A DNA stretch of 62,343 nt, counting the filler, from Dirinaria sp. TL-2023a (Eukaryota): the NCBI GenBank assembly GCA_051941275.1. It is 7 parts of 7 records of this genome, joined end to end, with 100 filler letters (N's around TTAATTAATTAA, not from the genome) between each part and the next. Parts side by side here need not be neighbours in the genome. Positions count along the whole stretch, not along the records: positions 26,819 to 35,648 come from JAVEBF010001137.1; 6 more parts are not named here. One strand, 5' to 3'. The notes beneath the pieces were generated by a model that had not been told where the DNA came from, did not search any database, and worked only from the letters and a program-made list of their open reading frames with translations. This document shows, piece by piece, positions 30,503 through 32,860 of this stretch. Positions within the stretch are counted from its first letter, which is position 1. Each line of letters opens with the position of its first letter. The translations under genes and the position numbers were made by a program.

Positions 30503-32860
30503 TTACCATGTCAGTATCTCGGAAAAGTCTTCTTGTACCTCGACCAGCTGACTTTTTTGGCGTGTGTATTTTAAGGACACCTTTTTCTCCATCGGATCAA
30601 AGGAGGCTGTGACATAAGATATTCGTGCCCACTTGGGCACATCTCTGCAACTCTTAATCTCGCCAAGTCCACTTTCTTCAACGTTCATTATCCTTTCTGC
30701 GACATGTGCCGCCATACAACTGTTCCAGATCCCTTCCTGCCGTGCTAACGATCGCAGGAGCGCGATGGCTCGACGTCGTACATAGGGGTCCCGGCACTTG
30801 TGAGCAACTGCGTATAAAGGGGTGATAATGGTTACCTCACAGGAAAACACTGGTTTCTCCGTGATCTGCGTACGTCCGTCGAGGGCGACAACCTTCTCTG
30901 CCATTTCCACAATCTCCTCACCTACCGAAACATGGTCATCCCATATACTTTCATTGGCGAACATATGATGTGTTGGAAATAGAAGGAACAGAGACTTTAT
31001 GCGTTGCTCCATCTGCAATACAAGAGCGCCTTGCTGGCTTTTCGCATCGAGATGTGTAGCTGGATTGTCAAGGAATTTCTCAAATGCTGTGTCCCAATGG
31101 CTCATAGTATTCCGCCAGAAGGTTCTTTGCTCTTCACCTAGGTCTTCGGATGGAGAGTTCTCTCCTAAACTAATGATGTAGCCAGAAAGGCAGTTCATCT
31201 GATAATCTAGCGAGTTCCTGGCTTCCTCAAGCGAGGAAAACATTTGTGGAATGTGAGGTCCAAACCCAACTTGTGTGGCTTGGCTAGTGGGGCGGAGGGT
31301 CATGGGCTTGGTTCCCAGCAACTGTGCATCACATGTTAGATTTTTCAGGCCCCACACTCATCGCAGGATTACATCGACATACCTGGTTAACTTGCGAGTC
31401 CAAGCGATTGAAGAGGACTTCGAATTTACTCCTTGGTGCAAGATTAAATTCCTGTTTGTTCTCTAGACGTTCAAAATTATCGTCAATTGATTCCCCGATG
31501 CCTTCCAGGATCCTTACACCGCCCTGGATGTGCGACATCGCAGAAGCGAGATGTCCGCGCAGGTTCTGACTGTGACTTAGCCTGTATTCCATAATGCAGC
31601 CGCATAGGCAGAGTGCCATGTATCCCTCACCTCAAAGCAGGCAAAAAGTACGCAAGATATCAGGCAAATGTCAAGCTGCTGTCGAGAAGTCGCTTTGATC
31701 AACTGTTGGATTGCCTTGTTGTACTGCTGCAAGGCAAAACCACCCTGGGCGATGTCTAGGTTCGACGCATACACCGACGTGTCACCCTGTTCGAAGCGTT
31801 CATGTAAGGAACCCAAGGCGAGAACGGCATGCTTGATCGCTGGATGATGATACGTTGTGCGTGGTACTAGCTTTTCCCAGAATTCGGACCCGAAGAAGCC
31901 CGAGAGCTGAGGTATAGTCCGCGTGCAGAAGAAGTTGAAGTTCCGTCGCTCCTGCTCGCTTCCTCCAAAGCCGGAGTGGGGATTCGATGCAACCGGCATT
32001 GCAAAGGGTGAGATGGCACTTCCAGAGGCTGGAAGCATCTGGGCCACTGGTGCGGAAGCCGCGCTGCGCTCTTCAGGTGGGGATTGATATCCATCACACT
32101 TCCTTCCTGTACTTGTGCATCGCATGCAGGCCGGCTTGGATTCATCACACTTCACTCGACGAACTGTGGGTACGTATCAGTACGAGAGCCTTGGGAACCG
32201 TCAGCCTGCTACGTACTCCTACAATGGGCGTCAGCATTGTCCTTTTCGTGGAATTCGACAGAGACTAAAAACACCAACGAGAAAAACAGGGCATTCTTTA
32301 AAGACGCGTTAAGGGGCAACATTAGACTCATAAAACACAGCTTTCATGTGAAAGAAGGTCAATTGTGAGTGCAAGTAGTAAGGATTCAGTCAACACATGG
32401 AGTATCCAATCAACATATCGACTAACATTGGTATCCTCAAGGCAAGTAGGGCTAAGCACTCAAAAAGGAATCCACGTAGCCCCAACTCAGTCAAAGGCGT
32501 TTGCAGAAGCCCTACTGAGGAAAGCAGTCTAACGACGCTATGGCATGCCGCTATACGAGCGTCGCATAAGCCAGGGCTATAGCTATAGGTCACGACAAAG
32601 CTAGCTTCCCAGACCTTCATACCCTAGCGTACTCCGAAAATGGACAGGCTCTGGCAGGTGAACGAGAGCGCCTCACGGGTTGAAATCATCATTCAGAGCG
32701 GTGTGCGCGTGTGGCTACGCTTCTGAGAGCAGGGATATGGAATAGTGCAACATATAAAGTAAAGGCTGGCAGCAACCTACTTGCAGGTAATGCATCCAGT
32801 CCGAACCTTGGGCTTCGACGCTCGTACCCTCACGTGTTTCGAATTCGCGGGCGTTGGCAT
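30503..32860 (-). CDS. Zn(II)2Cys6 transcription factor with fungal TF C-terminal domain; includes a 2-nt microexon
   Basis: Exon 1 MPTPANSKHVRVRASKPKVRTGCITC(K) at 32860-32781, microexon 32218-32217, then (I)RRVKCDESKPACMRCTSTGRKCDGY. Also HAVLALGSLHE, LISCVLFACFE and KCRDPYVRRRAIALL..RQEGIWNS. Confidence 0.9.

Follow-up and report, generated by a model that had tools for sequence, protein, structure and literature searches.

A probable two-nucleotide exon completing the zinc cluster of a Zn2Cys6 transcription factor gene in Dirinaria sp. TL-2023a

Extremely short exons have been described in plants, animals, and fungi. Arabidopsis, Drosophila, and humans have exons of 2–5 bp, according to the part of the study by Nelson & Syed (2026, PMC12940212) that is drawn on here, which also describes a 1-nt exon, backed by Sequence Read Archive (SRA) reads, in the CYP621A P450 genes of Fusarium. 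In Arabidopsis, a single-nucleotide exon was described in APC11 (Guo & Liu 2015, PMC4674806, in the portion cited here). Two further fungal systems are relevant, each through the sections of the reports on which this comparison relies: the Xlr2 gene of Trichoderma virens, which carries a 20-nt switch-like microexon in its Zn2Cys6 domain, with a glucose-dependent inclusion revealed by RNA sequencing (RNA-seq; PMC11121469), and the stwintrons and single-nucleotide intron shift of Pezizomycotina (Fekete et al. 2017, PMC5587772). The present analysis deals with a 62,343-nt stretch of DNA from Dirinaria sp. TL-2023a (hereafter, the window, in which all positions are counted). On its minus strand, a gene encoding a zinc-cluster transcription factor appears to contain an exon of only two nucleotides, GA, located between two canonical introns and inside the DNA-binding domain. 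As 1-nt exons have already been published in Arabidopsis and Fusarium, this would be a fresh example of a known oddity; no report of a 2-nt exon in fungi, or of a microexon in this regulator family, was found in open-access papers and bioRxiv preprints.

The comparison with the CYP621A genes, as far as the available account of them extends, reveals several common features. Both are fungal genes with an ultra-short, seemingly constitutive exon bordered by canonical AG and GT, which maintains the frame of a protein motif with strict spacing. In both cases, the exon was found through the phase mismatch of the adjacent exons, is conserved in orthologues, and had been missed by annotation pipelines, and the intervening region is unusually long. 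The two cases nevertheless differ in several respects: the candidate exon of the window measures 2 nt rather than 1 nt, and belongs to the DNA-binding domain of a transcription factor; its homologues are widely divergent (40–54% identity), while CYP621A, in the part of the report considered, is restricted to one genus; the family studied here has extant one-intron relatives of either kind; and CYP621A benefits from SRA reads, the window exon being known from its sequence. APC11, in the excerpt used, also has canonical introns on both sides of an extreme microexon, but this exon measures 1 nt, belongs to a plant gene, and has experimental support.

The coding part of exon 1 (32860–32781, minus strand) starts with an ATG at 32860 and ends with TGC AA. 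Its product is MPTPANSKHVRVRASKPKVRTGCITC, to which are added the extra bases AA, the two first bases of a lysine codon. This exon encodes Cys 1 and Cys 2 of the zinc cluster, and its N-terminus agrees with those of orthologue models (e.g., P0005, ...PKVRTGCITCK). It is followed by intron 1 (32780–32219, minus strand, 562 nt, phase 2), with a GTAGGT donor (32780–32775), a branch-like GCTGAC (32235–32230) situated 12 nt ahead of the acceptor, and the acceptor itself, TTGTAG, ending at 32219. The predicted GA exon (32218–32217, minus strand) would provide the third base of the lysine codon (AAG) and the first base of an isoleucine codon (ATT). Intron 2 (32216–32164, minus strand, 53 nt, phase 1) has a complete set of signals as well, namely a GTACGT donor (32216–32211), a branch-like ACTGAT (32181–32176), and a CACAG acceptor ending at 32164. 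Exon 2 (32163–31631, minus strand) begins with TT CGT CGA GTG AAG TGT, and is thus translated as TT + RRVKCDESKPACMRCTSTGRKCDGY..., the part from CGT onward reading RRVKCDESKPACMRCTSTGRKC; it holds Cys 3–6 of the zinc cluster and the beginning of the putative Fungal_trans_2 region. Removal of both introns yields TGC AAG ATT CGT and, with it, the C-I-T-C-K-I-R-R-V-K-C motif. The predicted mRNA junction is TGCAAGATTCGTCGA when the 2-nt exon is included and TGCAATTCGT when it is skipped, while TGCAAAGTTCGT is an example of another conceivable exon 1–exon 2 join.

The minus-strand reading of positions 31000–33600 confirmed, base for base, everything that the original prediction had stated about the sequence at 32164–32780. 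Its claim that the 2-nt exon is required for a complete Zn2Cys6 domain holds as well: with GA, the C-x2-C-x6-C spacing is obtained, and without it the frame breaks. Indeed, a direct exon 1–exon 2 join causes a frameshift, with a stop after 32 residues, and the retention of intron 2 leads to a stop at residue 29. In the spliced protein, the six cysteines are arranged as C-IT-C-KIRRVK-C-DESKPA-C-MR-C-TSTGRK-C, in agreement with the C-x2-C-x6-C-x5-12-C-x2-C-x6-8-C spacing of Zn2Cys6 domains. Exon 2 alone matches the Pfam Zn_clus profile (PF00172) with 23.4 bits (cut-off 21), over positions 9–36 of 39. As this match begins at position 9, the first two cysteines and two further residues must come from upstream.

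The conservation of this arrangement was assessed in metagenome contigs, which were scanned with exon 2 aligned to 14 homologues and provided 80 loci. The RRVKC motif served as the scoring anchor; it was absent in four loci, leaving 76 to be scored. A canonical single-intron solution is available for 64 of them. In most loci (56/76), this is a phase-2 intron placed right after the AA, AG, or CG of the Lys/Arg codon, and exon 2 begins, as a rule, with R-ATH; six loci have one phase-0 intron, and two (L005 and L008) have one phase-1 intron, inside the next codon. Seven loci (L001, L002, L003, L004, L012, L013, and L024) accept only the microexon solution, and five junctions have no solution at all. 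Since L001 is identical to L002, and L012 to L013, in the junction region, the seven microexon loci correspond to five distinct genes. In every one of them, exon 1 ends with TGC AA/GT and exon 2 begins with AG/TA CGN or AG/TT CGN (slashes mark splice sites). The six distinct spans (the window, L001, L003, L004, L012, and L024) each contain exactly one YAG/RA/GT site with an upstream CTRAY and a second intron of 52–60 nt. The microexon is always R-A (GA or AA), which matches the third base of Lys and the first base of Ile, and both its acceptor and its donor are canonical, with a branch motif on either side. The GA dinucleotide is thus read, with a probability of roughly 0.85, as a constitutive 2-nt exon between two canonical U2-type introns, resulting from neighbouring intron positions; from these sequence comparisons, we infer that it is included in the mRNA. 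The original prediction had made its own validity dependent on the conservation of the internal splice sites in homologues, and YAG/RA/GT is indeed found in five distinct relatives (seven loci).

It had also anticipated that gene predictors would miss the 2-nt exon, and this is what happened in the public model. The latter, P0004, is a protein of the metagenome-assembled genome named Dirinaria sp. TL-2023a by NCBI, with 100% identity to the window product. It is an exact suffix of the assembled protein, limited to the C-terminal 456 residues (MPVASNPH...), and begins after the zinc cluster. The models of homologues fail at the same junction in various ways. Those of Squamulea read ...KCRIRRVKC and ...KYRIRRVKC, that is to say TGT or TAY followed by AGR ATT, the intron 1 acceptor being read through and GA being fused to TT; this read-through suggests that the second intron is absent in Squamulea. 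The sequence ...TV-RRVKC, like ACAG/TT in the window, is found in the models of Gallowayella concinna and cf. Caloplaca (P0006 and P0008). In P0018 and P0022, the model jumps from AA to an acceptor within exon 2 (CITC-N-TGRKC), and those of Seirophora and Hyaloscypha variabilis (P0005 and P0058) contain K-Y-V, a read-through of AA/GTACGT. P0058 (H. variabilis) shares 81–93% identity with L003, the locus with an AA microexon.

At a larger scale, the six-cysteine pattern is intact within the first 140 residues of 49 of the 120 longer homologue models, with K-I at the junction in 31 of these 49 and R-I in nine; it is not intact in the other 71, a number that includes fragments and fused models. 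RRVKC is kept in 57 of 120 matches of similar length to exon 2. It is preceded by Val, in a non-cluster context, in 42 of the 57, as expected from G + TN at an AG/TN acceptor; among the remaining ones, R-x precedes it in four, and one is intact. In addition, P0016 (Penicilliopsis zonata), P0029, P0032, P0081, and P0108 contain 2–13 additional residues after the second Cys, ahead of RRVKC (e.g., CSTCK-SVFRVNYYSE-RRVKC). These extra-residue models, of Eurotiomycetes and Leotiomycetes, suggest that modelling errors at this junction extend far outside the lichen fungi. All this evidence, drawn from protein models, is of an indirect kind.

The frequency of such sites in shuffled sequences was used to evaluate the role of chance. 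A strict site, defined as YAG-NN-GTRNGY with CTRAY upstream, arose in 202/20000 dinucleotide shuffles of the 617-nt span of the window. The conserved form, which combines YAG-RA-GT, an upstream CTRAY branch motif, and a second intron of 45–75 nt, was searched for in 5000 shuffles per span, and arose in 4 of them for the window, 13 for L001, 1 for L003, 6 for L004, 3 for L012, and 5 for L024. The 617-nt span contains two AG-NN-GT sites, the GA site and AAAG/CT/GTGTTT. The latter was rejected as a 2-nt exon, as it has no CTRAY branch motif, would encode Asn-Phe, and has no counterpart in the relatives. Enumeration of all the GT..AG solutions in the window provided no canonical single GT-AG intron restoring both the frame and the six-residue spacing, and the sole single-intron reading keeping a GT donor would need an AC end. 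Such a non-canonical intron, extending from the AA/GT donor to an exon beginning with AGTT, would create AAA GTT (Lys-Val) without any microexon, with TGCAAGATTCGT as the expected junction read. The resulting C-I-T-C-K-V-R-R-V-K-C has the correct zinc-cluster spacing, and K-V is present at these positions in one intact homologue model. Nevertheless, this intron would end with AC in the window, and with TC, CT, CC, TC, and TC in the five relatives; its terminal dinucleotide is not conserved, whereas the microexon site is, and it was rejected on this basis. It would, moreover, leave unexplained the YAG/RA/GT site and its branch motif, 52–60 nt upstream in all six genes, which shuffling generates in only 1–13 of 5000 trials each. 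Splicing of the minor (U12) type is not known from these fungi. The Lys-Val intron is therefore considered very unlikely. It is also hardly credible that the gene is decayed or deprived of its DNA-binding domain, exon 1 being out of use and the protein beginning downstream, as in P0004. The downstream start annotated for P0004 would fit this view, but the frame of exon 1 is open and its N-terminus is conserved, all six cysteines are retained, and the splice signals at the junction are intact and conserved across relatives. The failure of numerous orthologue models at this very junction, in differing ways, rather indicates an annotation problem than decay.

If GA is a constitutive exon, its two introns would be removed consecutively. 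Only 14 nt separate the branch point of intron 1 from the intron 2 donor, which makes the simultaneous assembly of two spliceosomes unlikely. Once either intron is excised, the remaining one would adjoin an ordinary exon where the other had been. As the canonical signals of both introns are complete, neither needs the prior removal of the other, which distinguishes them from a stwintron; this reading was rejected, each intron having its donor, branch motif, and acceptor intact and contiguous in the genomic sequence. The portion of the stwintron work considered here (PMC5587772) does describe a related situation, with a complex intervening sequence, in the same fungal subphylum, that is processed through consecutive splicing reactions, and both that work, including the intron shift, and the present locus bear on introns at nearby, non-identical positions. 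The difference is that, in the window, no splice element is interrupted, and each intron is already whole while the other is still in place.

An unusually long intron 1 is common to all six microexon genes (562, 217, 91, 189, 209, and 212 nt; median 210.5 nt), compared to a median of 68 nt in 55 genes with intron 1 only (Mann–Whitney p = 1.6e-4, a value for which independence is overstated, the genes being related). A hidden RNA gene, a repeat, or an RNA structure was rejected as the cause of this length: intron 1 of the window has no match in Rfam at E<=1, no second copy of it was found in the window or in the fetched loci, and its folding energy is not unusual (z-score of −0.05). This extra length could hint at an additional function, such as the regulated switch suggested by the original prediction, in which inclusion or skipping of the exon, or the retention of a flanking intron, would make the cell alternate between a DNA-binding factor and a non-productive, truncated transcript. 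The early stops predicted upon skipping (after 32 residues) or intron 2 retention (at residue 29) would be compatible with this, and Xlr2 provides a precedent for a microexon switch within a Zn2Cys6 domain. From what the cited part of that report describes (PMC11121469), both microexons lie inside a fungal zinc-cluster domain, and are conserved among relatives, their absence removing DNA binding in Xlr2 and being expected to do so in the window, and that of Xlr2 is not predicted in the Joint Genome Institute (JGI) model, just as the window exon is missed in the public model. The Xlr2 exon is, however, 20 nt long and encodes two cysteines (PCRRCE), while that of the window has 2 nt and occupies another position in the domain. 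The splice signals of the window are, besides, all strong and canonical, intron 1 shows no Rfam match, unusual fold, or repeat copy, the contrast in intron length is not phylogenetically independent, and the one-intron relatives (64/76 scored loci) evidently manage without such a switch. The regulated switch is thus judged improbable, and the comparative data fit a constitutive exon made by two neighbouring intron positions. It is likewise doubtful that the intron pair and the consistently long first intron enforce a slow, ordered two-step splicing, which would gate the production of the DNA-binding form and be conserved, as a dinucleotide ‘splicing fuse’, in several Pezizomycotina classes. 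Regulation of the exon, if it occurs, would make it the smallest splicing switch known.

The origin of the GA exon may be found in the intron positions of the family. In the window, TTGTAG/GA is the counterpart of the family-wide acceptor YAG/R-ATH, and the second intron splits the Ile codon between A and TT, where exon 2 has already started in other genes. Two intron positions located 2 nt apart would thus generate a 2-nt exon as a by-product. Three states coexist in extant genes: the first intron only, the second only, or both. The second-only state is illustrated by L005 (TGC AAA G/GT..AG/TG) and L008 (TGC AGA A/GT..AG/GA), which kept only the phase-1 intron. Compared to the bulk of the family, the intron of these two loci seems to have moved by 2 nt. 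Another subgroup (L031, L038, L041, L045, L058, and L059) has a phase-0 intron, one base later than usual (AAG/GT..AG/ followed by GCN, ACG, or ATA); five of these six loci group on the tree, together with L048, while L041 is found elsewhere, on a long branch.

This tree was built from 93 rows and 178 columns of the exon 2 region, with a quick IQ-TREE search. Ten rows with the second intron are located on one side of a branch that separates them from 62 DNA-verified rows without it, which corresponds to one state change. A single gain of the second intron is thus favoured, not proven. According to this scenario, the phase-2 intron in the Lys/Arg codon after the second Cys would be old and family-wide, and the phase-1 intron in the Ile codon would be younger, having been gained once, in the ancestor of the subfamily. 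It would have been lost later in some lineages, such as Squamulea, and the first intron would have been lost in L005 and L008. The named proteins of the second-intron subtree, which we assign to Lecanoromycetes, Leotiomycetes, Dothideomycetes, and Eurotiomycetes, suggest an old origin by their spread across classes. The genes with both introns resemble an intermediate step on a path of gain followed by loss.

Several observations weigh against the reading of GA as a constitutive exon produced by two neighbouring introns, or against the history proposed for it. The support of the branch separating the second-intron rows (SH-aLRT 87.4) is below the 95 mark, and was obtained from a quick search on 178 columns. 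The intron states of Squamulea, Gallowayella, cf. Caloplaca, Seirophora, and Hyaloscypha were deduced from faulty protein models rather than from their DNA. L004 has an in-frame stop 8 codons upstream of its exon 1 end, for which it had been rejected by automated scoring; its exon 1 was taken by a separate reading, and its 5′ structure is only partly settled. Finally, P0010 and P0011, two uninterrupted 576-amino acid (aa) reading frames that read GCITCKIRRVKC, could stem either from transcripts or from intron-less genes. They were rejected as spliced forms of L012 and L024, with which they share only about 52% identity, and serve as uninterrupted length markers, not as complementary DNA (cDNA).

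The remainder of the gene is that of an ordinary Zn2Cys6 transcription factor, probably of the Fungal_trans_2 type. Exon 2 is followed by intron 3 (31630–31566, minus strand, 65 nt, GTGAGG...GTCAG), with the same CFE/NLRGH junction as in P0004, exon 3 (31565–31383, minus strand), intron 4 (31382–31322, minus strand, 61 nt, GTATGT...CTAAC...CACAG), with the same QVNQ/LLGTK junction as in P0004, and exon 4 (31321–30503, minus strand), which runs through the stop codon. Exons 3 and 4 are defined by the assembled coding sequence and P0004. Once the four introns are spliced, the coding sequence has 1617 nt, i.e., 538 aa plus the stop. The Fungal_trans_2 profile (PF11951) scores 18.9 bits on the exon 2 fragment, under the Pfam gathering threshold of 21, and 25.9 bits on the relative P0010; exon 4, searched alone against Pfam, has no match.

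An RTA1-like membrane protein gene (33953–35173, plus strand; Pfam PF04479, E = 3.9e-50) and the transcription factor gene are arranged head-to-head. This divergent pairing recurs upstream of the homologues in L001/L002, L004, L012/L013, L024, and L007, and the shared neighbour was taken as evidence of orthology for L001/L002, L004, L012/L013, and L024. In addition, RTA1 is fused with this factor in P0068, an Aspergillus model. From this gene order, the RTA1-like gene and the factor look like a conserved regulator–target or co-regulated pair.

The probable GA exon of the window adds a second fungal case of a 1–2-nt exon. Its first consequence is practical, as a subfamily of fungal zinc-cluster regulators is annotated without a DNA-binding domain, or with a corrupted one, and recognising the 2-nt exon repairs these models. 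The coexistence of genes with the first intron only, both introns, or the second only also bears on the debate opposing intron ‘slide’ to gain and loss at neighbouring sites. The family may thus represent a living intermediate, in which an apparent 2-nt ‘intron slide’ would proceed through the gain of a neighbouring intron, followed by the loss of the old one.

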